Of a stretch of DNA of 64,000 nucleotides, positions 44,996 to 62,775 are shown piece by piece. The stretch is taken from NCBI GenBank assembly GCA_965205265.1, contig CBDBGH010000003.1:2688001-2752000 (forward strand), written 5' to 3'. The notes under the pieces were generated by a model. That model saw only the letters and a list, made by a program, of their open reading frames with translations. It ran no database searches and was not told the origin of the DNA. Position 1 is the stretch's first letter; each line of letters starts with the position of its first letter. The translations under genes and the position numbers were made by a program. The stretch is from Alphaproteobacteria bacterium. GTDB taxonomy: Bacteria; Pseudomonadota; Alphaproteobacteria; Bin95.

Positions 44996-45020
44996 ACCGC
45001 CGGTCTCCGGCGATCCCGCT

Positions 45021-45464: not shown

Positions 45465-45522
45465 CCGCCATTCTCCGCCGCCATGCTGACCGGCAGGCTC
45501 CGTCCGGTCAAGCCGCCCGGCT

Positions 45523-47187
45523 TCATGCCGCCCCCTTCCAGCCATAGTCGCTGCGGGCCGCCGCCTCGCTGACGAGTCCGTCCTCCATATCCGCCGCCAC
45601 GGCTTCGCGCGCGCGGCCCCCGGAGGGTCCGTGCCCGCCGCCGCCCGGCGTGTGGACGACGAGCCGTTCGCCGGCGGGAATCGTCTGCGTGCCCTTGCCC
45701 TTCAGCCGGGTTCCCGACGCCAGGAAGACCGCGCCCGGCTCGCCGCCGCCGCCGCCGGCCCGCCCCCGCGCCGGGTTCTCGATGCGCTCGAAGGCCGCCA
45801 GCAACTCCATGTCCCTGCCATTGGCGGCTTCGACCTCGATGGTCTGGCCCGCCCCGCCGCGCCAGGTTCCGGGGCCGGCCGAGTCGATGCGCAGCTCCTT
45901 CCTGCGGAACAGCACCGGCGTCATCGTCTCGACGATCTCCACCGGCGTGCCCTTCACCCCGCTCGGATAGGCCGTGCCGTTCAGGCCGTCCTTCACGCCG
46001 CGCGCGCCGGTGCCCCCGTTGGTGACGGCGGTGAAGGCGAACAGGCTGCGCTCGTTCGAGCCGCGTTCGGCCTCGCCCCGGAAGGTGAGGTTCCAGAGCG
46101 ACGAGGCGCCCTCCGCCGGCACGCGCTCAGGCACCACTTTCTCCAGGCAGCCGAACACGACATCCGGCAGAAGCTGGCCGATGAGATGGCGGGCGCAAAC
46201 GGCCGCCGGATAGGGCGCATTGAGGATGGAGCGTTCCGGGGCCGTCACCCGGAAGGCGGAGAGCGAGCCCGCATTGTTCGGCACGCCCGGCGCGATCGCG
46301 CAGCCGAGCCCGAAGCTGGTGTAGGCGGTGGTGTAGGCGCTCGGCACATTGACGCCGTAGCGCGACATGGGCGAGGTGCCGTCGTAATCGACATGGATGC
46401 CGTCGCCGCCGATCTCGAGCGTGGCGACCAGGTCTATCGGCCGGTCGTAGCCGTCCACGGTCATCGTGTTGCGATACTTGCCCTTCGGCAGTTCGGCGAT
46501 TTCCGCAAGGACGGCGCGGCGGGAGCTGGAGACGATGTATTCGCCGAGCTCGTCCAGGTCCTCCAGGCCGAACTCGTCCATCATCTCGACCAGGCGCACG
46601 CAGCCCACCTCGTTGCAGGCGGCGAGCGAATAGACATCGCCCTCGCACTCCACCGGCTCGCGGGTGTTGCGCCGGACCATCGCCATGAGGGTGTTGTCGA
46701 TCTTTCCCCGGTCGGCGAGCTTCAGCATCGGGATGTAGAGCCCCTCCATATGCACATCGGTCGCGTCCGGGCCGGTGCCGATGCCGCCTATGTCGGTCAG
46801 ATGCGAGGTGCAGGAGAACATGCCGACGATCCGGCCCCGGCGGAAACAGGGCGTTGTCAGCACGAAGTCGTTGAGGTGTCCCGTGCCCAGCCAGGGATCG
46901 TTGGTGATGTAGATGTCGCCCTCGTTCATTTCCGCAATCGGGAAGTGGCGGATGAAGTGCTGCACGGACTCAGCCATCGAATTGACATGGCCCGGCGTGC
47001 CCGTCACCGCCTGGGCCAGCATCCGGCCCTTCAGGTCGAACACGCCGGCCGAAAGGTCTCCGCATTCGCGCACGATGGGGCTGAACGCCGTTCTCAGCAG
47101 CGTCTGCGCCTGCTCCTCGACCACCGAGATCAGGCGGTTCCACATCACCTGCCTGGTTATGACATCGAGTCCGTCTCTCTTCGCCAT
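45523..47187 (-). CDS. Hydantoinase B/oxoprolinase family protein
   Basis: RTAFSPIVRE.GD, NDPWLGTGHLND, DSAGPG.WRGG, TPGGGGHG. Confidence 0.92.
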   Translation of the reverse strand: MAKRDGLDVITRQVMWNRLISVVEEQAQTLLRTAFSPIVRECGDLSAGVFDLKGRMLAQAVTGTPGHVNSMAESVQHFIRHFPIAEMNEGDIYITNDPWLGTGHLNDFVLTTPCFRRGRIVGMFSCTSHLTDIGGIGTGPDATDVHMEGLYIPMLKLADRGKIDNTLMAMVRRNTREPVECEGDVYSLAACNEVGCVRLVEMMDEFGLEDLDELGEYIVSSSRRAVLAEIAELPKGKYRNTMTVDGYDRPIDLVATLEIGGDGIHVDYDGTSPMSRYGVNVPSAYTTAYTSFGLGCAIAPGVPNNAGSLSAFRVTAPERSILNAPYPAAVCARHLIGQLLPDVVFGCLEKVVPERVPAEGASSLWNLTFRGEAERGSNERSLFAFTAVTNGGTGARGVKDGLNGTAYPSGVKGTPVEIVETMTPVLFRRKELRIDSAGPGTWRGGAGQTIEVEAANGRDMELLAAFERIENPARGRAGGGGGEPGAVFLASGTRLKGKGTQTIPAGERLVVHTPGGGGHGPSGGRAREAVAADMEDGLVSEAAARSDYGWKGAA

Positions 47188-47198
47188 CGCCCGATCCC

Positions 47199-49283
47199 TC
47201 AAGCCTGTCTTTCCAGCACGATATTGCCCCCCGGCGCGAGCATGGCCCGGAATGTCCGGGAAACGAAGGTCGAAGTCTGCTCTTCGACGATCAGCGCCGG
47301 GCCGTCCAGCCCGTCGCCCGCGGCAAGGTCCGCGCGCCGGTAGAGCGGCACCCGCGCCGCCTCGCCGCTTTCCGTGTCGAACATGCTGCGCCAGGCGGCC
47401 GGTTCCGCCGAAGCCGGCGCAGGCGCCCGGCCGTCGGGGGCGGGCATCGCCTCCTCCGTGGAAACCGTCAGGCCCCAGGACAGCACCTCGACATCGGCGT
47501 CCGGAATGGTCCGCTTGAACAGCCGCTCGTATTCGCGGTCATAGGCCGCCTGCAGGACCCGCCCATCATCGGGCCCGAGATGCTCCGCTTCGACCGCCAC
47601 GGCGATCTCGTGCCCCTGCCCGAGATAGCGCATATAGGCAACGCGGCGCTCGGCGAGCGCCGCGCCGAACGCCCCGGATTCCACGACGGTGCGGGCTTCG
47701 CGGCGCATGTCGGCCATGAGCTCGTTCACGGCGTCCGCATCGAGGGCCGAGAGGCGCATGTTGAGGCTGCGCACGACCTCATAGGCGACCGGGGCCCGGA
47801 GGAAGCCGATGGCGGACCCGACCCCGGCATCGACCGGCACGACGATCCGCCGGATGCCGAGCTTCTCCGCAATCCGGCAGGCATGGAGCGGTGCGGCGCC
47901 GCCGAAGGCGATGATCGTCTGCTCGGCCGCGACCTTGCCCTCCTCGACCGCCAGCACCCGCGCCGCGTTCGACATGTTCTCATCGACGATTTCGACGATG
48001 CCCTGCGCCGCCTGCGACCGGTCGAGCTCCAGCGGCGCGCCGACGCTGCGGCCCACCGCCGCGCCCGAAAGCTCGGGCCGGAGTTCGATGCGCCCGCCGG
48101 CGAAACCCGCCGGGTCGATGCGGCCGAGCACGATGTCGGCGTCGGTAACGGTCGCGTCGGTTCCGCTGCGGTTATATCCCGCCGGTCCGGGCTCCGCGCC
48201 GGCGCTCTCCGGCCCCACGGCAATCCGGCCGAGCCGGTCCACGCGGGCGATGGAGCCGCCGCCCGCGCCGATCTCCACCATCTCGATCACCGGGATGCGG
48301 AGCGGCAGGCCGCTGCCCTTCATGAAGCGGGCCTGGCGGTCGATCTCGAATTCGCGCGCGCGCCTCGGCTCCAGGTTCTCGATGAAGCAGATCTTCGCTG
48401 TGGTGCCGCCCATGTCGAAGGACATGACCTTGTCGAGGCCGGCGCGCGCGGCGATGTCGCGCGCCAGCAGCACCCCGCCGGCCGGCCCGGACTCGACCAG
48501 CCGGACCGGCTGGCGCCGCGCCGTCTCGACGGTCGTGAGGCCGCCGCCGGATGTCATGAGCAGCATCGGGCAGACGATGCCGATCCCGGCCAGCATCCCG
48601 TCCAGACGCGCGAGATAGCCTTCCATCAGCGGGCGGACATAGGCATTCACGCTCGCCGTGGTGAAGCGCTCATATTCCCTGACTTCCGGACATACCTCGG
48701 AGGCCAGCGTCACCGAAAGCTCCGGCAGGGCCTCGCGGAGAATCGTTTCCACCCGCCGCTCATGCACCGGATTGGCGTAGGCGTGGAGGAACCCGACCGC
48801 CACGCTCTCGATCCGCGCGGCGGAGAGCGCCGGGGCGAGCGCCTGCACGGCCTCCTCGTCGAGCGGCACGAGAACGCCGCCCCTGGCATCGACGCGCTCC
48901 GGCACGGTGAAGCGCAGCCGGCGCGGCACGATGGGCTGCACCTTCTCGATCATCAGGTCGTACTGGTCGTACCGGGTCTCGTAGCCGACCTCGAGAATGT
49001 CGCGGAAACCTTCCGTCGTGATGAGCGCGGTGCGCGCGCCGCGCCGTTCGAGCACGGCGTTGGTGGCGAGCGTCGTGCCGTGCAGCACGAGCCCGACATC
49101 GCCGGCCTCAAGGCCCGCCTTGCGCAGCACTTCCCGCAGGGCCTCGATGACGCCCGCTTCCGGCGCGCGCGGCGTGGTCAGCACCTTGGCCGAGGTCCGC
49201 ATCCCGCCGGCTTCCAGCACGACATCCGTGAAGGTCCCGCCGACATCGATGCCGACCCTGCACCGGCTTTCCATCTCACTCAT
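47199..49283 (-). CDS. Hydantoinase A/oxoprolinase family protein
   Basis: GIDVGGTFTD, HGTTLATN, ESGPAGG, DMGGTT, GAGGGSIA, MRYLGQGHE. Confidence 0.93.
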   Translation of the reverse strand: MSEMESRCRVGIDVGGTFTDVVLEAGGMRTSAKVLTTPRAPEAGVIEALREVLRKAGLEAGDVGLVLHGTTLATNAVLERRGARTALITTEGFRDILEVGYETRYDQYDLMIEKVQPIVPRRLRFTVPERVDARGGVLVPLDEEAVQALAPALSAARIESVAVGFLHAYANPVHERRVETILREALPELSVTLASEVCPEVREYERFTTASVNAYVRPLMEGYLARLDGMLAGIGIVCPMLLMTSGGGLTTVETARRQPVRLVESGPAGGVLLARDIAARAGLDKVMSFDMGGTTAKICFIENLEPRRAREFEIDRQARFMKGSGLPLRIPVIEMVEIGAGGGSIARVDRLGRIAVGPESAGAEPGPAGYNRSGTDATVTDADIVLGRIDPAGFAGGRIELRPELSGAAVGRSVGAPLELDRSQAAQGIVEIVDENMSNAARVLAVEEGKVAAEQTIIAFGGAAPLHACRIAEKLGIRRIVVPVDAGVGSAIGFLRAPVAYEVVRSLNMRLSALDADAVNELMADMRREARTVVESGAFGAALAERRVAYMRYLGQGHEIAVAVEAEHLGPDDGRVLQAAYDREYERLFKRTIPDADVEVLSWGLTVSTEEAMPAPDGRAPAPASAEPAAWRSMFDTESGEAARVPLYRRADLAAGDGLDGPALIVEEQTSTFVSRTFRAMLAPGGNIVLERQA

Positions 49284-49388
49284 AAGGATATGCTTTCGCT
49301 GCCCGATCCTGCCCCGGACTGCGCCGCCCGGACCGCATGACGCCCGCCCAAGGATAGCGCAAGCGGCCCGCTTGCAAACCGCGTGCGC

Positions 49389-50135
49389 TCAGTGGTCGCT
49401 GAACAGGCTGCCGCAGCCGTATATCCGGTCGTCGAATCCGTTCGCGCGGTAGGCGTGCCAGGCGAGCGCGGCGTTGACCGCGACCACCGGCTTGCCGAGC
49501 CAGCCTTCCGCCTCCGCCGCGAGCCGCACCATGGAAAGGTTGGTGCCCACCTGCAGGATTGCATCCACGTCCGGTCCGTCGATCCCGCGCAGCGCGCCGC
49601 GCAACTCGTCCGGCGTCACCGCCGCGATGGCCGTGGCGCTCGGACATTCCAGATCGACGGAGCGGACCACCGGGAAGCCGGACTCCTCGAAATAGCGGAC
49701 GATCTGTTCGCGCATGACCGGCTGGTAGGGAGAGAGCACGGCGATCCGCCGCGCGCCCAGCGCCTCGAGCGCCGCACTGCACGCCTCCCCGCCCGTGGTC
49801 ACGCCGAGCCCGCAAAGCTTGCGGGCGCGTTCGAGGAACGCCGCGCCGCCCTCGCGCCCGCCCCAGAAGGTCGGCGCCGACATGCCCATCACCAGATAGT
49901 CCGGCTCGCAGGTCATCGCGTCGCGGACGGCCGTTTCGAAGGCCCGGTCCACCTGGCCGAGCAGCCGCTCGAAGGCGTCGTCCGAGTCGAGCGCCGGGTT
50001 CTCGAAATACATCCGCCCCGCCTGGAAAGTGACGCCCGGAATGCGGAAGAGATGGTTGAAATCGGCTTCCACCATTGCGTTGGTGGACGGCACGATGACC
50101 GCGATCTTGGCGCGGAATCCGGCGACATCGGGCAT
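49389..50135 (-). CDS. Asp/Glu racemase superfamily (maleate isomerase/arylmalonate decarboxylase-like) protein
   Basis: VIVPSTN..VE.DF, IAVLSPY, QVGTNL, KPVVAVN. Confidence 0.85.
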   Translation of the reverse strand: MPDVAGFRAKIAVIVPSTNAMVEADFNHLFRIPGVTFQAGRMYFENPALDSDDAFERLLGQVDRAFETAVRDAMTCEPDYLVMGMSAPTFWGGREGGAAFLERARKLCGLGVTTGGEACSAALEALGARRIAVLSPYQPVMREQIVRYFEESGFPVVRSVDLECPSATAIAAVTPDELRGALRGIDGPDVDAILQVGTNLSMVRLAAEAEGWLGKPVVAVNAALAWHAYRANGFDDRIYGCGSLFSDH

Positions 50136-50315
50136 GGCGGTCGGGGCGCCTCCTCGGCGGGCGGTGCGGCGGTGCGGTTCCGGGCCGGACCATCGCAGGA
50201 AGGCCGGCCTTCCGCCAGCCCGGCGGCATGGCGGCACAATCGTCCATGTATTAAGGTTCCTGCGGAATCGCCGGTCCGGAACGGGGCGGCGCTTCCGTCA
50301 GCGGGAGGAGAGGCG

Positions 50316-51212
50316 ATGTCCGACGGTATCGTTTTCATCGACGGCGAATACATGGCTCCGGAAGACGCCACGATGTCGGTTTTCGATGTCGGGTTCGTCT
50401 GGGGGGATTGTGTTTATGACGTGACCTCCACCTGGAACGGCTGGTTCTTCATGCTCGACGAGCATCTGGAGCGGTTCCAGCGTTCCTGCGAGGGCTTTCG
50501 TCTGGAGAATCCCTACTCCTTCGAGGAAATGCGCCGCATCTGCGCTGAGTGTGTGGAGCGCACGGGGCTCGCAAACACCTATGTGAAGATGCAGGTCTCG
50601 CGCGGCGTGCCGCCGCCCGGCGTCCGGGACCCTCGCGGGCTGAAGCCCATCGTCCTGGTGTACGCCGTGCCCTATGTGTGGATATGGGGCGAGGACAAGT
50701 GCCGCAACGGCGCGACCCTCTATGTAAGCGGCGTCGAGCGGGTGTCGTCGAAGGCCATCGACCAGCGCTTCAAGAACTACAACCGGGCCGACCTCGTACA
50801 GGCGCGCCTCGAGGCCTACGACAATGACTGCGACGACGCCATCCTCGCAGGCCCCGACGGCTTCCTCTCGGAGGGGCCGGGCTTCAACGTCTTCGTCGTG
50901 CAGGACGGCAGGGTGGCGAGCCCCGACTACAATGTGCTGGAAGGCATCACGCGGCGGTCGGTGCGGGAGATCTGCGAGCGCGAGGGCATCCCCTTCGAGC
51001 TGCGCAAGATCCGCCCCGAGGAGCTCGAAGAGGCAGGCGAGGTGTTCACCAGCACCACCGCGGGCGGGGTCATGCCGATTACCGGGGTCAACGGCAAGAC
51101 GGTCGGCAACGGCCATGCCGGCATCGTCACCAGCCGCATCCAGTCGATCTACTGGAGCGAGCGCGCGGCGGGCTGGCACGGCGTCAGGCCGGGCGACATC
51201 CTCGCCGCCTGA
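50316..51212 (+). CDS. Aminotransferase class IV (BCAT/D-amino acid/amine transaminase-like)
   Basis: FDVGFVWGD.VYD, KNYN, EGPGFNVF, LEGITR, TSTTAGG. Confidence 0.9.
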   Translation: MSDGIVFIDGEYMAPEDATMSVFDVGFVWGDCVYDVTSTWNGWFFMLDEHLERFQRSCEGFRLENPYSFEEMRRICAECVERTGLANTYVKMQVSRGVPPPGVRDPRGLKPIVLVYAVPYVWIWGEDKCRNGATLYVSGVERVSSKAIDQRFKNYNRADLVQARLEAYDNDCDDAILAGPDGFLSEGPGFNVFVVQDGRVASPDYNVLEGITRRSVREICEREGIPFELRKIRPEELEEAGEVFTSTTAGGVMPITGVNGKTVGNGHAGIVTSRIQSIYWSERAAGWHGVRPGDILAA

Positions 51213-51217
51213 ACGGC

Positions 51218-52780
51218 ATGGAGGGCGTTCCCCGCTCGGCAAGCGATTACGACGAGGCGTTCGATGTCGTCGTGGTCGGCTACGGTTTCGCCGGGTCCGT
51301 TTCGGCGCTGGAGGCGGCGCGCGCCGGCGCGCGGGTGCTGCTGATCGAGAAGACCGGCGTGCCGGGCGGCATCTCCATCTGCTCCTATGGGTCGGTGCGC
51401 TGCGCCCTCGACGCCGGGAAAGCCTACAGCTACCTGGCCGCGACCAATGGCGGGCGGACGCCTGACAATGTGAACCGCGTGCTCGCCGACGGCATGGCCG
51501 GGCTGGAGCCTTATGTGCGGGACCTTGCCAGGGTCAACGATGCGGAGATCGGCACCAGCGTCGAGGCCGGCAAGGCCGGCGGCAACTACCCGCTGCCGGG
51601 GTTCGACACCTTCTATCACACGACCGTTCACGCGGTGCCGAACTTCGACGCCCGCGCCGTCTATCCCTGGGCTAACGGGGCGCCGGGCGGGCCGATGCTG
51701 TTCAAGATACTCGACGACAATCTTGCGAACGAGGATGTCGCGATCCGGCTGAACACGCGCGGGCTGCGCCTGCTGACCTCGGAAGACGGGTCCGAAGTGC
51801 GCGGCATTACCGTCGAGGGACGGGACAGCATCCGCCATGTCAAGGCGCGGCGAGGCGTCATCCTCGCGTCGGGCGGGTTCGAGGGCAATGCCGAGAGGCA
51901 GGACCAGTTCTGGGAGGGCCGGCCCGTCCTGCCGGCCGCGGCCCGGCACAACACCGGCGACGGCATCGCCATGGCCCAGGACCTCGGCGCCGAGCTCTGG
52001 CACATGTGGCATTTCCACGGCGCCTACGGCTTCCGCAGCGCCGACCCGGACTACCCCTACGGCATAAGGGTCAAGCGCCTGCCGGACTGGCGCCCGGCCC
52101 AATCCGGCGAACATGACGACCCCGGCGTGAAGATGGCCTGGATCCTGCTGGACCGCGACGGGCGGCGCTACATGAACGAATACCTGCCCTACACCCACGA
52201 CACCGGCCACCGGCAGATGCAGTTCTACGACACGGTGCGGCAGGACTATCCGCGCATCCCGAGCGCCATGATCTGCGACGAGAACGGCCGCCGGCTCTAC
52301 CCGCTCGGCCAGCCCACCTCCAACGACGAGGGCATCCGGCTGGACTGGAGCGAGGACAATCTGGCGGAAGTGGAGTCGGGCGCGCTCAAGCGGGCGGGCA
52401 CGGTGGGCGCGCTTGCCGCCGCGCTCGGCCTCGACCCCGCCGCCGCGGAGGCCAGCGTCGCGCGCTGGAACGAGCTCTGCGCGGCCGGGCGCGACGGGGA
52501 TTTCGGCCGTCCGCCCGGAACCATGACGCCCATCGACACGCCGCCCTTCTACGGCGCGCCGATATGGCCGGTGGTGTCGAACACCCAGGGCGGGCCGGTC
52601 CACGATGCCGGCCAGCGGATCGTCAATGTGTTCGGCGCGCCGATCCCGAGGCTCTACGCAGCGGGCGAACTCGGCAGCGCCTTCGGCCACCTCTACCTCT
52701 CCGGCGGCAACATCGCCGAATGCTTCGTCTCCGGCCGCATCGCCGGCGCCGGCGCGGCGGCGCTTCCCGGCTGGGAATAG
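51218..52780 (+). CDS. FAD-binding oxidoreductase (SdhA/FrdA/TcuA-like flavoprotein)
   Basis: VVVVGYGFAG, ILASGGFE, NTGDG, NTQGG, LYAAGE, GRIAG. Confidence 0.85.
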   Translation: MEGVPRSASDYDEAFDVVVVGYGFAGSVSALEAARAGARVLLIEKTGVPGGISICSYGSVRCALDAGKAYSYLAATNGGRTPDNVNRVLADGMAGLEPYVRDLARVNDAEIGTSVEAGKAGGNYPLPGFDTFYHTTVHAVPNFDARAVYPWANGAPGGPMLFKILDDNLANEDVAIRLNTRGLRLLTSEDGSEVRGITVEGRDSIRHVKARRGVILASGGFEGNAERQDQFWEGRPVLPAAARHNTGDGIAMAQDLGAELWHMWHFHGAYGFRSADPDYPYGIRVKRLPDWRPAQSGEHDDPGVKMAWILLDRDGRRYMNEYLPYTHDTGHRQMQFYDTVRQDYPRIPSAMICDENGRRLYPLGQPTSNDEGIRLDWSEDNLAEVESGALKRAGTVGALAAALGLDPAAAEASVARWNELCAAGRDGDFGRPPGTMTPIDTPPFYGAPIWPVVSNTQGGPVHDAGQRIVNVFGAPIPRLYAAGELGSAFGHLYLSGGNIAECFVSGRIAGAGAAALPGWE

Positions 52781-52788
52781 CCCGCCGC

Positions 52789-53891
52789 TCAACTCTCGAA
52801 CGGCGCGGAGTCGGCGAAGCGGTCGAGGACGTTCTGTGTGATGCGCGAGATGTTGTTGTCGTAATTGTTGTGGGAGAGGCTGCCGCAATAGGTGATGGAG
52901 CCGACGGAGAAGACGGCCCCGCCCGCGGCGGTCTCGAAGAACGCCAGGTTCGAGCGGACCAGCGCCTCGGGCGGCTCGCCCGGCCAGGTGACGAGATGGG
53001 TCAGCAGCTCCTCCGGCACCACGACGAAGGTGTCGCCGTGCCGCTCGGAGGTCGCGAGCACGAGCGTGTTCGGCGGCGAGCCGAGGCGCGTGTCCACCCG
53101 GTCCAGCTCGAAGCCGGCCGCGCCCCCGCCAGAGAGGCCGAAATCGCCGAGTATGCGGTCCGGCACGCCCTCGAAGATCCAGGCCGCGCGCGGGTCGTCG
53201 GCGCCGGGGCCGCGCACATAGTATGAGCCGACGAACTGCCCCTGGGCGGAGAAGCCGACGCCTGCGAGCTTCTGCGGCGGGCGGTCGTTGCGCCGCCAGA
53301 GGCCGCCATATTCCCCGTCGAGCGCGTTGTAATACTCGCCGGGCTCCGCCGCCCAGGCGCGGATGCCGCCCTCGCCCCGCCGGATTTCCACGGCGCCGGG
53401 CGCGGCGTCGCTGACCGCCACCCGCCAGTAGAAGCCGTTGCCGCCGAGATACATGAGCCGCCCGCCCTTATCGAGATGGCGCTGGAGCGCGTCCAGCGTG
53501 TTGGCCGTGTGGTATTCGGGATGGGAGCCTGTCAGCACGACGCGGTAGGGCGAAATCAGGTCGTAGCCCTCGCGGTCCAGGTCGTGGTCGGTCACGAGGT
53601 CGAACTCGTAGCCCTTCTCCTCCAGCCAGTCGATGAGGTGGGTGTCGCCCGGATAGTGGCGCAGCCCCGAGCCCGCCTCGTCCAGATAGCTCATATAGCC
53701 GGAGCGCTGCGTCAGCACCGGGCGGCGCTGCGAGGCGAAGCAGATGCCGCTGCCGTCGGTGTGACGGTCATAGGTGGACAGGCCGTACTCCTTGTGGCGG
53801 TCGGCCGTAAGTTTGCGGGCGCCCCACTCCCGCGCCCGCGCCAGATACGCCTCGGTCGTCACGCCCCGCGCATAGTTGCCATACACCGTGT
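52789..53891 (-). pseudogene. N,N-dimethylformamidase large (beta) subunit, C-terminal half; 5' half cut off by element insertion
   Basis: GLSTYD.H.DGSG, TGSHPEY, YLGGNGFYW, GGAAGFELD, VFSVGSI; homology ends abruptly at TVYGN with no RBS. Confidence 0.85.
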
Positions 53892-54011
53892 GCGCACCAA
53901 TGGTGCTAACTATCTGAAATTACGTTGTTTTTTCTCCCGAACAACTGCCATCCGGGGAACTGAATTGCAACTGCCAGTTCCCCAGCTGCCACAGCAGGCG
54001 GGAGAGAAGGC

Positions 54012-55136
54012 ATGCCTGGAACTATCCTTACCGACGCCCGTGTCAGGGCGCTCAAATCCCGCAAGACGGTCCGGGACGTCCGCGACGGCAAGCTCAGGGG
54101 CTTCGGCGTCCGCGTGTCGCCTTCGGGCCGCAAGCGGTTCTTCCTCCAGTGCCAGCACTGCGGCGAGCGCGTCTGGAAGATCGTCGGCGATGCCGGGGCC
54201 ATTAGCGTCGCAGAGGCGCGGTCCGTTGCGGCTGAAATGCTCGCCGCCATCCGGCGCGGGGAGGAGACGCCTGCCTCGCCCGGCGAGGCGCTGTTCGAGG
54301 CTGTCGCCGAGACCGCATTCCGTCGTCGCGAGAGGGTCTGGAAACCGGGCACGCTCTATGTGAACCGCAGCTACCTGCGCAGCCAGCTCCTGCCGCATTT
54401 CGCCGGGCGTCCGATTGCTGACATCGACCGGCAGGAGGTGAGGAACTGGTTCGCCCGCCTGCGCGCGACGCCAGTGGCGGCGGACCGGTCGATGCCGGTG
54501 CTGTCCGTCATCATGAAGGAGGCGGAGGCCATGGGTATGCGCCCGGAAGGCTCCAATCCTTGCCGGGGCGTGCGGCGCTACCGCCGCAAGGGCCGCGAGC
54601 GGTTCCTGTCTGATGACGAGGTCCGCCGCCTGTCCGCGAGGCTCACCGCCCACGAAGTCCGGTTTCCGCAACAATCCGCCTTCATCCGCCTGCTGCTGCT
54701 CACCGGCTGCCGCAAGGGCGAGATGCTGACGCTGCAATGGTCCGACTACCGGGACGGCCACTTGCATCTCCGGGACAGCAAGACCGGTCCCAGAACCGTC
54801 TGGCTGTCCGGGGCGGCCCGGCGCGTTCTTGACAGCCTTGAGCGGCAGGGGCGCTGGGTGTTCCCGGCGGCGCGCGGTGATCGGCCGCGGAGCCTTCGCT
54901 GGCTGGACTATTTCTGGTCCAGGCTGCGCGCCGAGGCGGAACTTGACGACATGCATCTCCACGACCTGCGCCACTCGATGGCGACCATCGCTCTGAGGCA
55001 GGGCGAGACCGTACTGGCGATCAGCCGCCTGCTCGGTCACCGCAAGCCGGAGACGACGCTGAAATACCTCCACCTTCCCGACGCCGCGGTACACGAGGCC
55101 GCCGAGACGGTCGGCGCGGCGCTTGGGGGAGAATGA
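54012..55136 (+). CDS. Tyrosine recombinase 1 with N-terminal arm-binding domain
   Basis: RDGKLRGFGVRV.PSGRK.F; catalytic TGCRKGE, SKTG, HDLRH, LGH, TLKY. Confidence 0.94.
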   Translation: MPGTILTDARVRALKSRKTVRDVRDGKLRGFGVRVSPSGRKRFFLQCQHCGERVWKIVGDAGAISVAEARSVAAEMLAAIRRGEETPASPGEALFEAVAETAFRRRERVWKPGTLYVNRSYLRSQLLPHFAGRPIADIDRQEVRNWFARLRATPVAADRSMPVLSVIMKEAEAMGMRPEGSNPCRGVRRYRRKGRERFLSDDEVRRLSARLTAHEVRFPQQSAFIRLLLLTGCRKGEMLTLQWSDYRDGHLHLRDSKTGPRTVWLSGAARRVLDSLERQGRWVFPAARGDRPRSLRWLDYFWSRLRAEAELDDMHLHDLRHSMATIALRQGETVLAISRLLGHRKPETTLKYLHLPDAAVHEAAETVGAALGGE

Positions 55137-55139
55137 GCC

Positions 55140-56405
55140 ATGGCCGCCACGGAACGGATGAAACTCACCGAGGCGACCATCGCCCGGCTCCGACCCCGCG
55201 AGCGCGAATACACGGTCTGGGACACGCGCGTCGCCGGGCTCGGCATCAGAGTGCGGCCCTCCGGGGGATGCAGCTATGTGCTGCTTCTCGACGCCGGCGG
55301 GCGCACGAAGCGCGTCTCGCTCGGGCGGGTCGGTGTCAAGAGCCTGGAAGAGGTCCGAAGGGAGTGCCATGCCCGCCGGGCAAACCCGGAGCCGGAGAGA
55401 GGGACCGCGCCGGCGTATGCCGTCCCGCTGTTCCGGGACTTCGTCGCCGGGCCGTGGAAGGAGGCGCATTTCGACCGCTTCAAGCCTTCGACGCAGCGGG
55501 CGGCCCGGTATCAGCTGGCGGCGCAACTCCTGCCGGCCTTCGGGGCGAAGGCGCTGGACCGCATCGGCGAGGGCGGCATCAGGCGCTGGTTCGAGCCCTA
55601 CAGCCGCACCGCCCCCGGCAACGCCAATCACGCCCTCGGGCGTCTCAGGCAGATTTTGAACTTCGCCGTCGCCTGCGGCCATATTGAACGCAATCCGGCC
55701 GACGGCATCGCGTTCAACCGGCTGGCGAAGCTCACGCGCTTCCTGTCCCGCGAGGAGATTGCGCGCCTGCACGCCGTCCTAGACGCCCGGACCCGCGAGG
55801 GCGACCGCCAGCAGGCCGACATCATCCGTCTCTTGCTGCTCACCGGATGCCGCCGGGGCGAGATCGTCGGCCTCAGATGGTCGGAGGTCCGCGACGGGGC
55901 ACTAGCGCTCGCCGACGCCAAGACGGGGCCGAGGACAGTTGCCCTCAATAGGCAGGCGAGAGCCATTCTCGACCGGCAGCCGCGCACGGGCAGCGCGTTC
56001 GTGTTTCCCTCGCCGCTCGATCCCGCCCGCCCGCGCGGCCCCGATCTCAGGCTGTGGCATCGTGTGCGCTGCGAAGCCGGCATCGAGGACTGCCGCCTTC
56101 ACGACCTGCGGCACACGATGTCGAGTCATGCCGTGATGAACGGCGTGCCCGTGCCGGTGGTCTCCCGGCTGCTCGGGCATTCCAATGTGCAGATGACGAT
56201 GCGCTATGCCCACCTCGCAGACCGCGACACCGAAGCGGCGGCGGAGCGTGTGGGGGAAGTCATCGACGCGCTCATGAACCAGCAGGGGACAGGAACGTTG
56301 GCGGCCGGCGACCCTACCGCCGCCCTGTCTCCCGCTGGCCGCGATCAATCCGGGACCGAGTCGCCCGGACGAGGCGGCAGCATTCCCCGACGCCGGCACG
56401 GATGA
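55140..56405 (+). CDS. Tyrosine recombinase 2 with N-terminal arm-binding domain
   Basis: WDTRVAGLGIRVRPSG; catalytic TGCRRGE, AKTG, HDLRH, LGH, TMRYAH. Confidence 0.94.
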   Translation: MAATERMKLTEATIARLRPREREYTVWDTRVAGLGIRVRPSGGCSYVLLLDAGGRTKRVSLGRVGVKSLEEVRRECHARRANPEPERGTAPAYAVPLFRDFVAGPWKEAHFDRFKPSTQRAARYQLAAQLLPAFGAKALDRIGEGGIRRWFEPYSRTAPGNANHALGRLRQILNFAVACGHIERNPADGIAFNRLAKLTRFLSREEIARLHAVLDARTREGDRQQADIIRLLLLTGCRRGEIVGLRWSEVRDGALALADAKTGPRTVALNRQARAILDRQPRTGSAFVFPSPLDPARPRGPDLRLWHRVRCEAGIEDCRLHDLRHTMSSHAVMNGVPVPVVSRLLGHSNVQMTMRYAHLADRDTEAAAERVGEVIDALMNQQGTGTLAAGDPTAALSPAGRDQSGTESPGRGGSIPRRRHG

Positions 56406-56918
56406 GCGTAAGCGCTGCATCATTGCCTGTCCCGGTCGCCGTGGGGAGCGTCCCCGCTTTCCCTCGTCTGCCAGTCCACCCTGTGGTTCGCGTCTGCGCC
56501 CCTAGGCCGGATCTTCCCGCCGTTGAGTTGCTGCGTGTTGGCGAGATGTTCCGCTCCCCTAAGGTGTTGACGACGGCACGGTTACTCGTGCCGGTGCCGC
56601 GCTCGTAGGCCGCCCACCTCTCGCCCCAGCGCGCCGAGTCCATATCGAACTTAACCCCCAGCGTGCCAGTGATGTCGACCGACCCGCCGATAAAGCCCTT
56701 CCTAGGGCCCTCCCTCCATTCACCTTCATCCCTCTTCAACCGTACTGGTCAGCCCTCTTGCTCTCACCCTTTTGACTGACCGTGCAAAACACCCTACCAT
56801 TTCTTTAGCCTCGCGCCTCAGCCACCGTTACGACCTTCCACCCCTTCTGTTCTCCTAGCACCCACGAGCACTCCTTTCCTGCTCTTCGCCACCTTCCGCC
56901 TCCAGTGCGAGCACCTCA

Positions 56919-59216
56919 ATGCCCGAGCGAACCTTTGTTGCATTCTCTTCGGCTGATACCGTCCTCGCCGAACTCATTGACACGGCCTGTGAACACGCTC
57001 AAACCTCGAAACGCATTCTTGAGCCTTGGAACCGATTCGACCCCTCTGGTACTCCGATAGATAAAACGGTCTATTCTTGGATTGAAGACGCAGACTCGCT
57101 TATAGCTGACGTCTCAGAGCCCAACGACAACGTCACCTATGAAATCGGCTTGGCCTTGGGCCTGCGGAAACCACTACGACTAATTCGTGCTTCGAATAAA
57201 GCCTTAAAGAACTTGGTATCAGTAGGCCTTCTGCACAATGTTGGACACGACGAATACACCAATACCGCCTCTTTGGCCGCTATACTGAAGAAACCCATCT
57301 CGCCAAACAACTGGCCCAAGTCAAGCCCAAATCGCGAACATCCAGTATATTTTCTTCAACTGACTGGGGACGAAGATATCTCTCGCCGCGTCGCAAGTCA
57401 CATAAAGAAAATTATTAAATTGAAGTACCGGTCCATGAACCCCAATGAAGTGGATCGCCTGACGGCTTCCGAAGCATTCGAGCATATCTCTCAGTCCTTT
57501 GGCATTATTGCAGTTTGGGACAACTCCGAAGCAGGCTCTTCGACACGGCAAAATCAACGCACCTCTTTCGCGATTGGTGTTGCCCGGGGCCTAGACATTC
57601 CCTTTTTGCTTCTTGCCCACAAAGATGACAGGCTTCCACTCGACCTAGACGAAATAGCGACCCGATGGGAGCATATTGCTGGACTATCCTCCATTATGAG
57701 GAGATTTCGCGACGAGATATACGAATACCAGGAAGCCTTTGTTGAAATCAAGCCCAATACCGAGCGATTTCTTGACCAAGTGTATTGTGGAGATCCTGCG
57801 GCAGAAAATGAAGCATCCCAGCTGGAGACATACTTCCTTGAAACGGAGCAATTTCGACTAACATCATCCGGAGATCTGAACATCCTATTGGGGAGAAAGG
57901 GCAGCGGAAAAACAGCCATTTTTCTCCAAACACGAAATAGAACACGCTCAGAAAAATCGAATATAGTTGTTGATTTGCAGCCGGAAGGCTATCAGTTGAT
58001 TCGGTTAAAGGAGTTTGTGCTAGAATATCTTTCTATCGGTGCTCGAAAAGAATTTATCGCCTCTTTCTGGGAATATATCGTATGGCTGGAAATTGCTTAT
58101 AAAATTTTAGAAAAGGATCACCGCCGGGCCCGATATGATTTTGAGTTGATGGAAAGATATAGGCAGTTGGAGAAATTTTACCAAGAGCGGGCGGAAGGAG
58201 AGGGGGACTTTAGTGAACGACTTCAAGCCCTCGTCGAAAGAATTATTACCCGTTATGAAGGCCAAAGCGGATGGCAGGAGGGATCATTGGCGTCATCCCG
58301 CGTGCTGGAAATAGTTTATGGCAAGGAAATTACCCAAATACGAGAGGAGGTTTTGGGATACCTTTCGAGAAAGGGCGTGGTATTCTTTTTGTTTGATAAC
58401 CTGGATCGATTTTGGACACCGCCTTCATTCACTGAGTTGGATGCTGAAATTATCTCGGGGTTAATTGAGTCGCTAAAGGATATACGACGAAGATTTTCGC
58501 GAAAACAGTTAGAGTTTAGCTGGGCAATTTTTCTTCGCAGTGATGTATTCGAGTTCGTCATTGGTGCTATGGCGGACTACGGGAAGCTTAGCGTGGCGAG
58601 TGTGGAATGGAATGACAGAGCCTTATTGGAGCAGCTGTTCAAGAATCGAATATTGAAAGGCTTGCGAGCTGGTAAACGGAGGTGGGGCGAAGTATGGGAA
58701 CAGGTGTCCGTGCAACGGGTGGATGGTAAACGAACGTTGGAGTTTCTAGTCGAATCTTCGCTAATGCGCCCGAGATATCTCATTCGGCTGTTTGAAACCG
58801 CAAGGAGGAGGGCGGTAACGTTAGGTCGCAACACCGTGCAAGAAGAGGATTATCGCTTGGCTTTGGAGGAGCTGGGCTGGCAGGTATTGGAAGATTTTGA
58901 CCGAGAGCTGAAGGATGTGGTTCCCGCCGCGGAGGACTTGATGTTTGATTTGCTTCAGTTGGGGACCGAGTTTTCGTTGAATCGTTTACGCCGAGCAGTC
59001 GAAGCTAGAGCGCGGGCGGGGGATGTGGTCGATATGGTTGTGGACGTGTTGATATGGACAGGCTGTATCGGCGTCAAAAACGGTAGTGGGGTCACTTACA
59101 TTTCCGATTGCGGGTTTAGAAGGGCGTATATTCGATCATTGCTCCGCGACGAGGACGCGCAGGTTATAGTTTTTCATCCCACGTTGGCGGCCGTGATTGG
59201 GGGACCAACGACATAG
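56919..59216 (+). CDS. NDT/TIR-like domain fused to P-loop ATPase (Sll1717-like); candidate defence protein
   Basis: IADVSEPNDNVTYEIGLALGLRKP N-terminal motif, GDPAAENE, GRKGSGKTA Walker A, FFLFDNLD Walker B; much lower GC than flanks. Confidence 0.8.
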   Translation: MPERTFVAFSSADTVLAELIDTACEHAQTSKRILEPWNRFDPSGTPIDKTVYSWIEDADSLIADVSEPNDNVTYEIGLALGLRKPLRLIRASNKALKNLVSVGLLHNVGHDEYTNTASLAAILKKPISPNNWPKSSPNREHPVYFLQLTGDEDISRRVASHIKKIIKLKYRSMNPNEVDRLTASEAFEHISQSFGIIAVWDNSEAGSSTRQNQRTSFAIGVARGLDIPFLLLAHKDDRLPLDLDEIATRWEHIAGLSSIMRRFRDEIYEYQEAFVEIKPNTERFLDQVYCGDPAAENEASQLETYFLETEQFRLTSSGDLNILLGRKGSGKTAIFLQTRNRTRSEKSNIVVDLQPEGYQLIRLKEFVLEYLSIGARKEFIASFWEYIVWLEIAYKILEKDHRRARYDFELMERYRQLEKFYQERAEGEGDFSERLQALVERIITRYEGQSGWQEGSLASSRVLEIVYGKEITQIREEVLGYLSRKGVVFFLFDNLDRFWTPPSFTELDAEIISGLIESLKDIRRRFSRKQLEFSWAIFLRSDVFEFVIGAMADYGKLSVASVEWNDRALLEQLFKNRILKGLRAGKRRWGEVWEQVSVQRVDGKRTLEFLVESSLMRPRYLIRLFETARRRAVTLGRNTVQEEDYRLALEELGWQVLEDFDRELKDVVPAAEDLMFDLLQLGTEFSLNRLRRAVEARARAGDVVDMVVDVLIWTGCIGVKNGSGVTYISDCGFRRAYIRSLLRDEDAQVIVFHPTLAAVIGGPTT

Positions 59217-59773
59217 AGAGAGTTCAAAGGAAGCGGACGGTCCCGCCGCGGGCCAGGGCCCTGGAGGGCCGCGAGCATTCGCTTCACTGAGGGGTCTGCG
59301 GGGCTCGTTCCAGTTCTCCCTTGCGCCGGTTCTGCGCCGGCAGCCATTGCGTCGTGCTTCGCCGTGCTGCGTCCGGCCGGTCGGTGGTCCGGCCAGAGGC
59401 GCAAGAGGGCGGCGAAACGCGCCCGTCCGGCCTTGAGGGCCGGCCGTAGGCGCTTCTCTAGGTCGGGGCAGCATGCCTCCGTCCCGGGATTCGATCGCCG
59501 CTCCGCCCGGTCCACGCCGCGCGTCCCGGTTTCCGCTGTGCCCACCGCCGCCTTCCCCGCCTCCGGTCGCCTCACCATCTTGCGGTGATACGTAGTCCGA
59601 TCGTGTGCTCCGGCGCCGCCGCGCCTGCTTCGGGCCCGGCGGCCTCGCGCTGGTTGGCTTCGAGTGCGAGTGCGAGTTCGAGTGCACCGTAAGCGATGCG
59701 GCAGGGGCACCTTCCGCTCGGTCTCGGGATTTGAGACTCCGCTACGTTCGGGAGGACGTAGAGGAGTTTCTCC

Positions 59774-60163
59774 ATGGAGCGCACTGCGGAGTTTCTCAGC
59801 CCGGTCGAGGTGATCGGTGGAGTGAAGGGTCGCCGTCGCTGGCCGGAAGAGTTGAAGGCGCGGATTGTAGCGGAGACGCTTGAGCCTGGCGCGAGGGTGG
59901 CCTCGGTAGCACGGCGTTACGATCTTCGCCCAAGCCATCTGTCGGACTGGCGTCGCAAGGCGCGGGAGGGTCGCCTGGTTTTGCCTGCAGCGGACGAGGC
60001 AGTGGAGTTTGCGCCGCTGGTGGTCCGGGCTGAAGGGCACGGCGCCGAGGCGAACGGTGGGTGTCTGGAAGTGGTTCTGGACCGGGTTACGGTCCGTCTG
60101 GATGCGGCGGTGCCGGCGGGCCGGCTGGCGGAGATCGTGTCTGCGCTGAATGCGCTGTCATGA
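59774..60163 (+). CDS. tnpA: IS66 accessory protein TnpA
   Basis: RRRWPEELKARIVAETLEPGA.V..VARRY HTH. Confidence 0.9.
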   Translation: MERTAEFLSPVEVIGGVKGRRRWPEELKARIVAETLEPGARVASVARRYDLRPSHLSDWRRKAREGRLVLPAADEAVEFAPLVVRAEGHGAEANGGCLEVVLDRVTVRLDAAVPAGRLAEIVSALNALS

Positions 60164-60513
60164 TCTTCCCGTCGAACCGGGTGCGGATCGTTGTCGCAAC
60201 GAAGCCCGTCGACTTCCGCCGCCAGCACGACGGCCTTGTCGCGCATGTGAAGGGCGCGCTGCGGCGGGACCCGTTCACCGGCACGGTATACGTCTTTCGA
60301 TCGAGGCGAGCTGACAGGCTGAAGCTGGTCTTCTGGGACGGGACCGGGCTGGTGCTGATCTACAAGCGTCTGGAGGACCAGGGCTTTGTATGGCCGGCGA
60401 TCCGCGACGGGGTGATGTCGCTGAGCCATGCGCAGTTCGAGGCCTTGTTCGCGGGCCTGGACTGGCGTCGCGTGCGGGCGCTGTCGGCGCGGCGCCCGGC
60501 TGAGGCGGAGTGA
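60160..60513 (+). CDS. tnpB: IS66 accessory protein TnpB
   Basis: KPVDFRRQHDGL, VFRSRRADRLKLVFWDGTG, YKRLE. Confidence 0.93.
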   Translation: MIFPSNRVRIVVATKPVDFRRQHDGLVAHVKGALRRDPFTGTVYVFRSRRADRLKLVFWDGTGLVLIYKRLEDQGFVWPAIRDGVMSLSHAQFEALFAGLDWRRVRALSARRPAEAE

Positions 60514-60568
60514 CTCAGCCGGTGGATCGGGGCGTCCGGCTCCGCGACACTGTGCTACCAAGCGAGCC

Positions 60569-61787
60569 ATGGCTGCGCTTGCGGAGATCGACCTTGAAAC
60601 GCTGACACCCGAACAGCGGGAAGCGGCGGTGCAGGCGATCATGGCGCTGGAGACGCTTCGCACCGAGAACGAGGTGTTGACGGACCGCAATGAGGCGCAG
60701 TCCGAGCGCATCCGCCGTCTCGAACACCTGGTGCGCGAGCTGCAGCGCGTTATCTACGGGAAAAGGTCGGAGAAGCTGACGGCGGACGAGCGCCAGCTGG
60801 CGTTCGAGGACCTTGTTGCGGCGGCGGAAGAGATCGAGGAAGCGATCACGCCGGCCGATCCGGCGCCGGCCCAATCGCCGAAGCGTCCTCGCCCGGCGCG
60901 CAATCTCGGCCATTTGCCGGACCACCTGGAGCGGATCGAGCAGGTGATCGAGCCGGAGAGCACGCTCTGCCCCTGCGGCTGCGGGGAAATGGCGAAGATC
61001 GGCGAGGATCGCACGGAGCGCCTGGACATCGTGCCGGCGCAGTTGCGGGTGATCGTCACGGTGCGCCCGAAATACGCCTGCCGCCGGTGTGAGGAAGGCG
61101 TGACCCAGGCGCCGGCGCCGGCCCGGCTGATCGAAGGGGCGCTGCCGACCGAAGGCGCTATCGCGCATGTGCTGGTCTCGAAATACGCCGATCATTGTCC
61201 GTTGCACCGTCAGACGCAGATCTATGCCCGCTCAGGCCTCGATCTGGACCGCTCGACGCTGGCCGGCTGGGTCGGCAAGGCCTCGTTCCACCTCAGGCCG
61301 GTGGTTGACCGCCTGGCACGGCACCTGAAACGGTCGTCCAAGCTCTTCATGGATGAGACGCGGGCGCCGGTGCTCGATCCGGGCCGCGGCAGGACGAAGA
61401 CCGGCTGGTTATGGGCGCTGGCCCGCGACGACCGTTCCTGGGGCGGGCCCGATCCACCGGGCGTCGTCTACTTCTACGCCCCCGGGCGCGGCGGCGAACA
61501 TGCGGAGCGCTTCCTTGATGGCTTCGACGGCATCCTGCAGGTCGATGGCTATGCCGGCTACAGCCGGCTGGCCGGACCGAGCCGCAAGGGCGGCGCGCCG
61601 CTGCGGCTGGCCTACTGTTGGGCCCATTGTCGGCGCCGGCTTCGCGAAATCCACGACAGCAGCGGCTCGGAAATCGCAGCCGAGGGCTTACGCCGGATCG
61701 CCGAACTCTACGCCATCGAGGCCGATATACGCGGCAGCCCGCCGGAGCTGCGCCTCGCCGAACGGCAAACGCGCTCCGCGCCCCTGG
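60569..61787 (+). pseudogene. tnpC: IS66 transposase TnpC, truncated by IS21 insertion
   Basis: YGKRSEK, KYADH.PL.RQ, MDET, LQVDGYAGY, CWAHCRR; homology stops at RSAPLV. Confidence 0.88.
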
Positions 61788-61881
61788 TGTTAGCGACGGT
61801 TAGGAAGGGCGTTTATTTGCTGGCGCGGAACGGCCGGTTTGTGCGGCTTGCGAGCAGCGTCGCATGGGTTAGGTGTTGCGT

Positions 61882-62775
61882 TCATCTGATTGGGCGGTCA
61901 TCGGTTTCGAGCGGCTCGCCGTCGCGGTCACGGATGAGCATGTCGTTCCAGTCCTGGTTTTCGAGGGCCGGTCGCATTCGGACGATTCTTGTGTCGTTGT
62001 CTTGCATGCGGCGGGCGGCGTGATCGCCGTATCGTGTAGCGTCCCAGGCACAGAAGATACGGCGCGGGTTCCAGGCCTCGACCCATTTGGGGATTCTGGC
62101 CGTGATGGCGCCGGTGGAGACGACGGCGCATTTGCTGCGTTTTTCCGGGACGAGGTGGAGGGAGAGGATCGACAGGGCGTCGAGGGCGCTGCCGGTGAGG
62201 ATGACGGTGCCGGGCCAGTCGGGCTCCCATGACATCCAGAAGCCGCCGTCTGCGGCCGGCTCCTGCGCTGCGGGGAGGGTCTCTATGCCGACCACCTTGC
62301 TGGCGGCGTTTCGGCGGAGGAACACGGGATTGCCGCGCCGGTCGGCACGGATCAGGCCGAGGCCTCGGCATAGCTCGACGAGCGCGTCGGCGAGGCCGCG
62401 CTGCTCGATGAGGTATTGCCGCAGCGCCGGCCAGCGAGGGTCCTGGCACGAGGGCTCCGCCTCACAGCGACTGTTCGGGAGCCGTGAGTGGCGCGGCAGT
62501 TGGGCGAGGAAGTCGAGGGCTTCGGTCGTTGGGCATCCGAGCGCATGAACCGCCAGCTGGATGGCCCCGGCGCCTCCCTCTCCGCGCAGATGGTCGTAGA
62601 ACATGAAGCGGTTGATGGAGAGGACCGAACCGGCTCGTCTCCAGCGCGCGGCATCGGCGGGATCGCGGCGATAGCCGAGGGCGTGGACCACGTCTTCGAG
62701 GGGGCAGCTTCGCAGCCCCTCGGCCCGCAGGCGGCGATCCCATGGATGCAGATGCTGCACGGCTGGCTCAGGCAT
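61882..62775 (-). CDS. DUF3991 + degenerate Toprim domain protein
   Basis: [42 protein letters not shown]; start overlaps istB stop. Confidence 0.72.

Follow-up and report, generated by a model that had tools for sequence, protein, structure and literature searches.

A tandem pair of arm-type tyrosine integrases marks the probable left end of a transposon-like integrative element in a disrupted DMFase gene of an alphaproteobacterium

We analysed a window of 64,000 nucleotides, i.e. the whole stretch of DNA under study (positions 2,688,001 to 2,752,000 of contig CBDBGH010000003.1, assembly GCA_965205265.1), from the chromosome contig (C3) of an Alphaproteobacteria bacterium of the lineage Bin95 (genome G000). 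Two adjacent tyrosine integrase genes, int1 and int2, lie next to a truncated dimethylformamidase (DMFase) gene, and the window probably holds the left, integrase-bearing end of a transposon-like integrative element with paired integrases. The family to which this element belongs has defined ends, empty sites in relatives and copies at unrelated sites, the features by which mobile elements are generally recognised. An initial annotation of the window had proposed a mobile element with two tandem recombinases that inserts in protein-coding genes, and this was borne out by empty sites, flanking repeats of 10-11 bp, conserved ends, insertion at many sites and co-divergence of the two integrases (see below). 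Coordinates refer to the window unless they carry the prefix C3; G005 denotes one of 16 congeners compared for DMFase orthologues, Int1 homologues and the left-end pattern, and L-numbers denote fetched loci.

Int1 (54012-55136, plus strand, 374 aa) and Int2 (55140-56405, plus strand, 421 aa) are separated by a spacer of 3 nt (55137-55139), and a purine-rich, Shine-Dalgarno-like stretch for Int2 (GGGGGAG) lies inside the 3' end of int1. Pfam detected the domains Arm-DNA-bind_3, Phage_int_M and Phage_integrase in both proteins, and both retain a full catalytic set (R234/K257/H317/R320/H343/Y352 in Int1; R238/K261/H321/R324/H347/Y356 in Int2). Each protein thus has the arm, the core-binding domain and the catalytic domain with R-K-H-R-H-Y that characterise an arm-type integrase, and Int1 and Int2, which share 38% identity, are two translationally coupled arm-type integrases, just as the initial annotation had described two full-length arm-domain recombinases 3 nt apart. 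The NCBIfam models for Xer proteins, integron integrases and the gamma-mobile-trio integrase GmtZ matched below threshold in all cases (XerC and XerD 36-63 bits against cutoffs of about 330-335; GmtZ 21.6 bits against a cutoff of 600); our guess is that the GmtZ model is akin to the recombinases of SE or GInt elements. The closest solved structures were distant integrases and Xer proteins. Int2 had no match at E <= 1e-30 among 50,697 phage records, and no phage structural domains were found among the open reading frames (ORFs) scanned.

The integrase pair begins next to a disrupted gene. A DMFase large-subunit-like gene on the minus strand (52789-53886) is a 3' fragment that matches only positions 100-374 of the Pfam profile DMFA2_C (E 2.5e-75), and its frame is read through to the junction, with extra codons up to 53891. 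The fragment was 90-97% identical to full-length congener genes, and a full-length orthologue in this range of identity was found in 13 of the 16 congeners. Because homology to the intact DMFase genes of seven congeners stops at 53891, the start of the element was placed at 53892, 120 nt 5' of the Int1 ATG. In all seven congener loci examined the site is uninterrupted and carries a single copy of a 10-bp sequence (...CACCT ACACGGTGTA CGGC...), which was exact in six loci and carried one substitution (ATACGGTGTA) in L008. The same 10-mer forms the left copy of a flanking repeat in the window (53882-53891, plus strand; TACACCGTGT, which is ACACGGTGTA in gene sense), identified by comparison with the congeners and between junctions, and it contains the target motif ACACC. 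The left junction was bridged with zero differences by contigs of three public runs from three studies (X1, 53425-54407; X3, 53425-54409; X5, 53425-57819); the contigs of a further run (X6) hold DMFase sequence up to 53827 only, short of the junction, and give no evidence either way. The end of congener homology and the bridging contigs both corroborate the sharp junction some 120 bp from Int1 noted in the initial annotation, and no tRNA or tmRNA was found in 45000-64000, in line with its statement that the insertion is not at a tRNA.

The missing 5' part of the DMFase gene had been expected downstream of position 64000. It is absent from the next 20 kb and sits at C3:361664-361944 (plus strand; profile positions 2-99 and the open frame upstream), 2.38 Mb off and inverted. 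A second copy of the 10-bp repeat was found there (C3:361935-361944), so that comparison of the two junctions, as proposed in the initial annotation, returned the same repeat at both, followed in each case by element sequence. Judged from these alignments, this copy is shown to have entered the DMFase gene at ...ACCT/ACACGGTGTA/CGGC... (slashes mark borders here and below). The cognate right end begins at C3:361945 with the terminal sequence, followed by three inward-read ORFs for NikA-like ribbon-helix-helix proteins, which gave only weak MobA-like matches in NCBIfam. Its first part (C3:361945-362000) carries an inverted copy of the left-end motif TAACTATNTG...CGTTG, and the terminal sequence holds TAACTATTTGTATAGCGTTG, the inverted counterpart of TAACTATCTGAAATTACGTTG in the left end of the window.

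The left end of the element (53892-54011, plus strand) is conserved among copies and comprises the palindrome GCACC-AAT-GGTGC (53894-53906), the sequence TAACTATCTGA (53907-53917), a conserved T-rich stretch and the ribosome-binding site of Int1. Across the family, the left end reads (C)GCACC-N3-4-GGTGCTAACTATCTGA, i.e. (C)GCACC-N3-4-GGTGC-TAACTATCTGA; the stems of the palindrome, which were fixed by the search pattern itself, are invariant and the loop is variable, suggesting protein-binding half-sites and not a hairpin. The left end is followed by Int1, Int2, variable cargo and one to three inward-read NikA-like genes, and the right end consists of the inverted left-end motif, stopping at ...T/ACACC. 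Target sites contain ACACC with about 6 variable nt; ACACC plus 4-6 nt recurs at both borders, in some cases with a single mismatch. About 18 tandem integrase pairs were counted in this genome, among them four close paralogues of Int1-Int2 (50-75% aa identity), two of which have the same 3-nt gap. Six copies in this genome share the left end about 110 nt before Int1, and the flank of each is different and ends in an ACACC-like 10-mer. Two identical right ends were found in this genome by regular expression and a third, at C3:4375458, by blastn. Int1 homologues (E <= 1e-80) were present in 14 of the 16 congeners, with up to 29 matches in G005, and the left-end pattern in 12 of them, with 20 matches in G005. 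The pattern was searched, together with a reversed control, in the 37 genomes of the bacterial family: it had no match in the 20 genomes of two sister genera, and the reversed control had none in all 37.

Intact elements were found in the congener G005. Fourteen G005 loci share only a module of 2.38-2.43 kb (left end, Int1, Int2) at 84-93% identity; homology stops 40-100 bp after Int2, and the cargo differs. Five elements are contiguous and have a right end of the form TCAGATAGTGCCCTAAC-N23-/ACACC, in which TCAGATAGT is the inverse of ACTATCTGA in the left end. Four of them are bordered by matching repeats: L014 (10.07 kb; ACACCGCGCC left, ACGCCGCGCC right), L018 (11.06 kb; ACACCGCGCC at both ends), L015 (8.2 kb; ACACCAGCGAG left, ACACCAGAGAG right) and L017 (10.1 kb; ACACCCGAGAG left, ACACCCGGGAG right). 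L014 and L018 sit in an insertion sequence (IS) transposase gene, an intact paralogous copy of which, in L011, has a single ACACCGCGCC and represents the empty site. The site of L015 is empty in all five congener loci, including this genome (C3:644-645 kb); two of the five carry the exact ACACCAGCGAG and none carries the A variant of the right border. L015 and L017 are 99.86% identical over 7.2 kb and lie at different sites, which points to recent movement. Common to the G005 elements is a right-end module of 0.5-0.85 kb, in which the NikA-like genes of this genome have between one and three homologues, the match being split over two frames in L015 and L017. Their cargo includes an ADP-ribosylglycohydrolase with ARPP-1, a porin, a 2,273-aa fibronectin-III repeat protein and IS elements, and no relaxase or type IV secretion system domain was detected in the 23 ORFs scanned from the five complete elements. 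Together with the six left ends in this genome, the G005 elements provide the copies at unrelated sites with different cargo that the initial annotation had anticipated. We also observed the left end at an identical ACACCGCGCC site in L012, L014, L018 and L020, within copies of one IS transposase gene (DDE_Tnp_1/DUF772; L011 8168-10106); either this site is a hot spot, or the element spread together with the IS.

The two integrases appear to be inherited as a unit. A search of genome contigs, with an alignment of eight Int2-type proteins as the query, yielded 80 related loci, 64 of which have a full-length integrase on the matched strand. In 51 of these 64, a full tandem pair was present, with the Int1 orthologue directly upstream of the Int2 orthologue; among the other 13, five had no upstream sequence, seven had a partner that was shorter, cut by the contig end or slightly farther away, and one was a remnant. 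A third adjacent full-length integrase in the same orientation after a pair was found in none of the 80 loci. Int1 was the better match of the upstream gene in all 51 pairs, and Int2 that of the downstream gene in 48, and identity to Int1 and identity to Int2 were closely correlated across the pairs (r = 0.95). A tree of 42 proteins, an analysis likewise suggested by the initial annotation, separated a first-position clade from a second-position clade (support 98 for each), and position labels changed 4 and 5 times compared to a mean of 14.2 for shuffled labels. The second protein of the Photobacterium damselae plasmid pPHDD1 fell in the second clade with support 99, its first protein in the first clade with support of only 88 and on the longest branch of the tree. 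One further clade mixes first and second positions and represents a different tandem family of this genome. RKHRHY was retained in both members of all 75 pairs inspected, some of which come from shared genomes and are non-independent.

Tandem pairs were also found on pPHDD1 and on an Aurantiacibacter plasmid, where they are annotated merely as 'site-specific integrase'. The 80 related loci come mostly from metagenome-assembled Alphaproteobacteria, including bins labelled Defluviicoccus, Paracoccaceae and Sphingomonadales. The palindrome GCACC-N3-4-GGTGC was found in 33 of the 51 tandem pairs of other genomes, 115-131 nt before Int1 in all but one, and in these 33 pairs ACACC lies mostly 7 nt ahead of the palindrome, with unrelated sequence beyond. 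A few related bins are labelled as Acidobacteria, Gemmatimonadetes, Bacteroidota or Chloroflexi, labels that could reflect either cross-phylum transfer or binning error, and small shares of the query's words occurred in sponge and marine metagenome runs. Three small candidate complete elements in the 4-kb flanks of the 80 loci had unmatched repeats and were judged spurious.

These ends and borders suggest how the element may move. It would excise as a circle whose attP would read right end-ACACC-overlap-(C)GCACC-N3-4-GGTGC-left end, and would integrate at those ACACC sites that are followed by bases in partial agreement with the overlap of the element. The ACACC-containing flanking repeats fit such a reaction, because recombination of a circular attP with a loosely matching attB would leave them. 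ACACC would then be a conserved core half-site beside an overlap of 6-7 bp that tolerates heterology, as in CTnDOT or Tn916, and the far half-site of the target would be weakly defined. Int1 and Int2 may act as a heterotetramer in which each performs one pair of strand exchanges, as XerC/XerD or TnpA/TnpB of Tn554 do, and the NikA-like proteins could bend the right-end DNA in an architectural role or as directionality factors; alternatively, they could bind an oriT and let a helper mobilise the element. A broader proposal, which we regard as quite possible rather than probable, is that an ancient, obligate, XerC/XerD-like duo of arm-type integrases defines an unnamed class of transposons, with an ACACC target and a heterology-tolerant overlap, NikA-like genes at the far end and IS-like multiplication (20 or more copies per genome), that has spread through Alphaproteobacteria and plasmids of Vibrionaceae.

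Several observations weigh against a transposon-like element with paired integrases, or against this copy as an example of it. The exact left-end motif was found in none of 400 other genomes sampled across the class, and the palindrome is absent from 18 of the 51 tandem pairs (all six at 35-40% identity and 12 at 54-75%). ACACC and the GCACC of the element are direct and not inverted repeats, which is unusual for a core site. The fifth contiguous G005 element, L013 (8.3 kb), has two unmatched flanks, and the Pfam scans cover ORFs selected by size and G+C content at third codon positions (GC3). That the integrases act as a heteromer, which half-site is which and what the NikA-like proteins do are matters we infer. 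Of the two junctions, the contigs of public runs cover the left one and contained no excision joint there. With the 5' half of the DMFase gene in inverted orientation at a distance of 2.38 Mb, this copy has ceased to be a single contiguous element. Its right-half segment measures 3.48 kb, to C3:365420, where it abuts a truncated fragment of a diverged Int1-like gene (67% aa identity, aa 1-169), beyond which lies a gene for a TrwC relaxase. The right half also has a twin with 99.97% identity (C3:3085018-3088500), bordered by ...CGGTGTA/, that is, by another ACACC site, and no second Int1-Int2 copy above 77% DNA identity was found in this genome; given the twin and the single integrase pair, it is the flanking repeat, and nothing else, that ties the original halves together. 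A clean pair of inversion breakpoints did not emerge from inverted repeats, the repeat map, a truncated pair near 4324 kb or the borders of the IS66 element described below.

We infer that this copy, which carries IS insertions, was split after insertion by an inversion. In such a history, an inversion of 2.38 Mb, roughly symmetric about the terminus, together with the IS66 and IS21-like insertions, would have parted the integrase half (window 53892 onward) from the right half (C3:361945-365420). The GC skew switches near 1.45 Mb and the midpoint of both junctions lies at 1.55 Mb; this approximate symmetry about the skew switch is consistent with a genuine inversion that followed the insertion. 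Excision of this copy as a unit is no longer possible.

The pair could instead be the integration module of a large integrative and conjugative or mobilisable element (ICE or IME) with a TrwC relaxase, in which case the DMFase insertion would be an ICE of roughly 80 kb. Such an element would account for the TrwC-type relaxase/helicase of 1630 aa about 8.5 kb inward of the right junction and for the NikA-like homologues of relaxosome accessory proteins at the right end; inverted repeats able to mediate inversion are located inward of the two junctions, at distances of 21 kb and 59 kb, and the right end at C3:4375458 and a left module at 4324.6 kb are 50 kb apart. However, the four contiguous G005 elements with matching repeats span 8-11 kb and their scanned ORFs held neither a relaxase nor a type IV secretion domain, and three of the four are backed by empty sites (L014 and L018 by the paralogous IS copy, L015 by all five congener loci). 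In addition, the truncated Int1-like gene of a diverged copy between the right half and TrwC suggests that the relaxase belongs to a separate element, and we consider an ICE or IME unlikely. Islands are well known to accrete in tandem at a single att site, and the roughly 18 tandem pairs and many rearrangements of this genome might be taken as the outcome of single-integrase islands integrating side by side, with incidental adjacency of Int1 and Int2. This explanation is extremely improbable: the gap is 3 nt, with the ribosome-binding site within int1 and the same gap in two paralogous pairs, no end motif or att repeat lies between the two genes, and 51 of 64 loci show the same order with position-specific orthology, correlated identities and separate clades.

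It is also conceivable that only one of the two proteins is a recombinase and that the other is a regulator, an arm-binding accessory protein or a directionality factor with an integrase fold. SE and GInt elements do need a protein with a recombinase fold and no catalytic motif (Tfp and GinC, respectively), whereas here all six catalytic residues were present in both members in 75 of 75 pairs and both have arm, central and catalytic domains, which makes a division into one enzyme and one accessory very unlikely. A last alternative concerns this copy only and holds that repeats misled the assembly into the 2.38-Mb split of the DMFase gene, the element being contiguous in the cell. Identical IS copies are abundant in the assembly (about 60, 27 and 17 of three ISs), contamination was estimated at 7.28%, and the GC skew is flat or noisy from 2.75 to 4.5 Mb. 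Nevertheless, the left junction was confirmed by the contigs of three runs, the sequence from C3:365421 onward is unique and not an IS, so that a simple repeat-mediated misjoin is not evident, and the junctions are about symmetric around the skew switch, as real inversions tend to be; we judge an assembly error decidedly unlikely. A transposon-like element with paired integrases, split in this copy after insertion, is the reading retained in the comparisons below.

IntDOT of CTnDOT and Int of Tn916 are arm-type integrases that use a short conserved motif flanking a variable, mismatch-tolerant overlap. The present family resembles them in its arm-type integrases and in the short motif on one side of such an overlap. 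Tolerance of overlap heterology by IntDOT is described in a published study (PMC2817482). CTnDOT and Tn916 are large conjugative elements with a single integrase and Xis, whereas the elements described here have two integrases, measure 8-11 kb and had no relaxase among the scanned ORFs. XerC and XerD offer a functional analogy, in that the two integrases of this family would likewise be a paralogous, co-evolving and catalytically complete pair acting as a heterotetramer; XerC and XerD are, however, chromosomal housekeeping enzymes without an arm domain. Tn554 of staphylococci and enterococci is highly site-specific, whereas this family has a 5-bp target motif and many sites. According to a comparative account (PMC10214605), Tn554 carries a pair of neighbouring tyrosine recombinases at one end; its terminal inverted repeats are imperfect, and its borders hold a short core. 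All three properties recur here; Tn554, however, needs a third gene, tnpC, and nothing conserved follows Int2. The Tn554 TnpA subgroup is classed by Smyshlyaev et al. among the simple recombinases (PMC8138268), which are arm-less, in contrast to Int1 and Int2, which both have an arm-binding domain. The same text describes RIT elements as carrying three simple arm-less recombinases, which belong to subgroups RitA, RitB and RitC (PMC8138268). RIT elements and this family are alike in having tandem tyrosine recombinases thought to move the element, and differ in that there are three arm-less recombinases in the former and two arm-type integrases here.

SE (intA-tfp-intB-srap) and GInt (ginABCD) have four-gene cores that include a non-catalytic protein with a recombinase fold, as laid out in PMC10214605. 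Similar to these elements, the family described here has several recombinases in a core at the left end, terminal repeats that are imperfect and selected insertion sites, and the spacer is inherited differently at attL and attR: in L015, attL has the version of the target and attR the variant. In contrast to SE and GInt, no tfp- or ginC-like gene lies between Int1 and Int2, no srap or ginD follows, both integrases are catalytically complete and NikA-like genes, which are outside the SE and GInt cores, occupy the far end. The same paper reports no Tfp or Srap homologues of SE in Alphaproteobacteria or Betaproteobacteria and no ginC-ginD blocks of GInt in Alphaproteobacteria. The pair thus matched no described RIT, Tn554 or prophage module (the extra genes are absent, both integrases are arm-type and no phage record matched Int2 at E <= 1e-30), which leaves standing the suggestion of an undescribed arrangement. 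No description of tandem arm-type integrase elements was found in the full-text literature searched, with subscription journals and supplements outside its reach, and the family is apparently not yet named in print.

Known elements with several tyrosine recombinases (Tn554, RIT, GInt and SE) are few, poorly understood and taxonomically narrow, and this family adds a design with two arm-type integrases. Its ends are clear, its target rule is readable, empty sites occur naturally and copy number is very high in some genomes; it would be a tractable system in which to study the division of one reaction between two recombinases and the rise of an element with tyrosine recombinases to IS-like abundance. 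For annotation, pairs labelled only 'site-specific integrase' mark both disrupted genes and cargo islands, with a candidate defence ATPase, ADP-ribosyl-glycohydrolase/ARPP-1, porins and surface proteins among the cargo.

In the window, the next ORF after Int2, 513 nt downstream, encodes a cargo protein (56919-59216, plus strand), a P-loop ATPase of the Sll1717 family (NCBIfam NF047389, 274.9 bits, cutoff 75) with an N-terminal nucleoside 2-deoxyribosyltransferase-like domain that scored just below the Pfam cutoff (Nuc_deoxyrib_tr, 28.6 bits against 28.8). Its G+C content is 44-51% in the four bins of 57000-58999, compared to about 69% around. Defence models matched weakly and below cutoff (PADLOC PDC-M28C, E 3e-4; NCBIfam DS41_1, 28.6 bits against a cutoff of 370), and the ATPase may be regarded as a candidate for a role in defence. 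Of the proposed defence cargo, the variable cargo was confirmed, while its defence function stays at the level of a candidate.

An IS66-family element lies inside or beside the integrase element (59689-61788, plus strand), with TnpA, TnpB and a TnpC that is cut at 61788 (Pfam HTH_Tnp_1, TnpB_IS66 and DDE_Tnp_IS66). It has six copies in the genome and a left terminus GTAAGCG from 59689; no right terminus or target duplication was found at its borders. Nested in it is an IS21-like element of 4,093 bp, the left part of which (61789-64000, minus strand) encodes istA, istB and a DUF3991 ORF (Pfam IstB_IS21 and DUF3991) and which continues to the window-equivalent position 65881 (C3:2753881). It was found in 17 copies at >=90% identity, those listed being 99.7-100% identical, and appears to be a relative of IS21 that carries a passenger gene or a third gene, the DUF3991 ORF being located at about 61882-62900 on the minus strand. 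The IS load of the chromosome is extreme, with about 60 copies of a 1.9-kb IS, 27 of a 2.8-kb IS and 17 of the 4.1-kb IS, and the GC skew, flat or noisy between 2.75 and 4.5 Mb, is strongly positive at 4.75-5.3 Mb; IS load and skew suggest many rearrangements or foreign blocks in the chromosome.

Downstream of the window, at window-equivalent positions 67592-77849 (L002 3592-13849), we observed two genes for Slam (surface lipoprotein assembly modifier), a porin gene and genes for TbpB-like/factor-H-binding-like lipoproteins, one of which is broken by the 1.9-kb IS. In this cluster, a stretch of 164 nt matches the NikA region of the right half at 84%. On the other side of the split, the TrwC relaxase/helicase gene (1,630 aa; C3:366475-371367, minus strand; L001 10475-15367) adjoins the truncated Int1-like fragment, and an ORF with a Type ISP restriction C-terminal domain lies farther on (L001 18563-19501); this region is possibly another island. 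Finally, a second and seemingly unrelated tandem-integrase family, 36-40% identical to Int1/Int2, is present in this genome in near-identical copies of 2.2-5.5 kb (C3:3509166-3514647, 5345950-5351435, 5153912-5159403, 4734317-4736520 and 5320871-5323045). The left border, (GG)TGCGTCGGGTGTGAGAACC, is sharp and adjoins four distinct flanks, and the far end continues into additional repeats; two units of this family lie head to head within a duplicated block of 12.4 kb.

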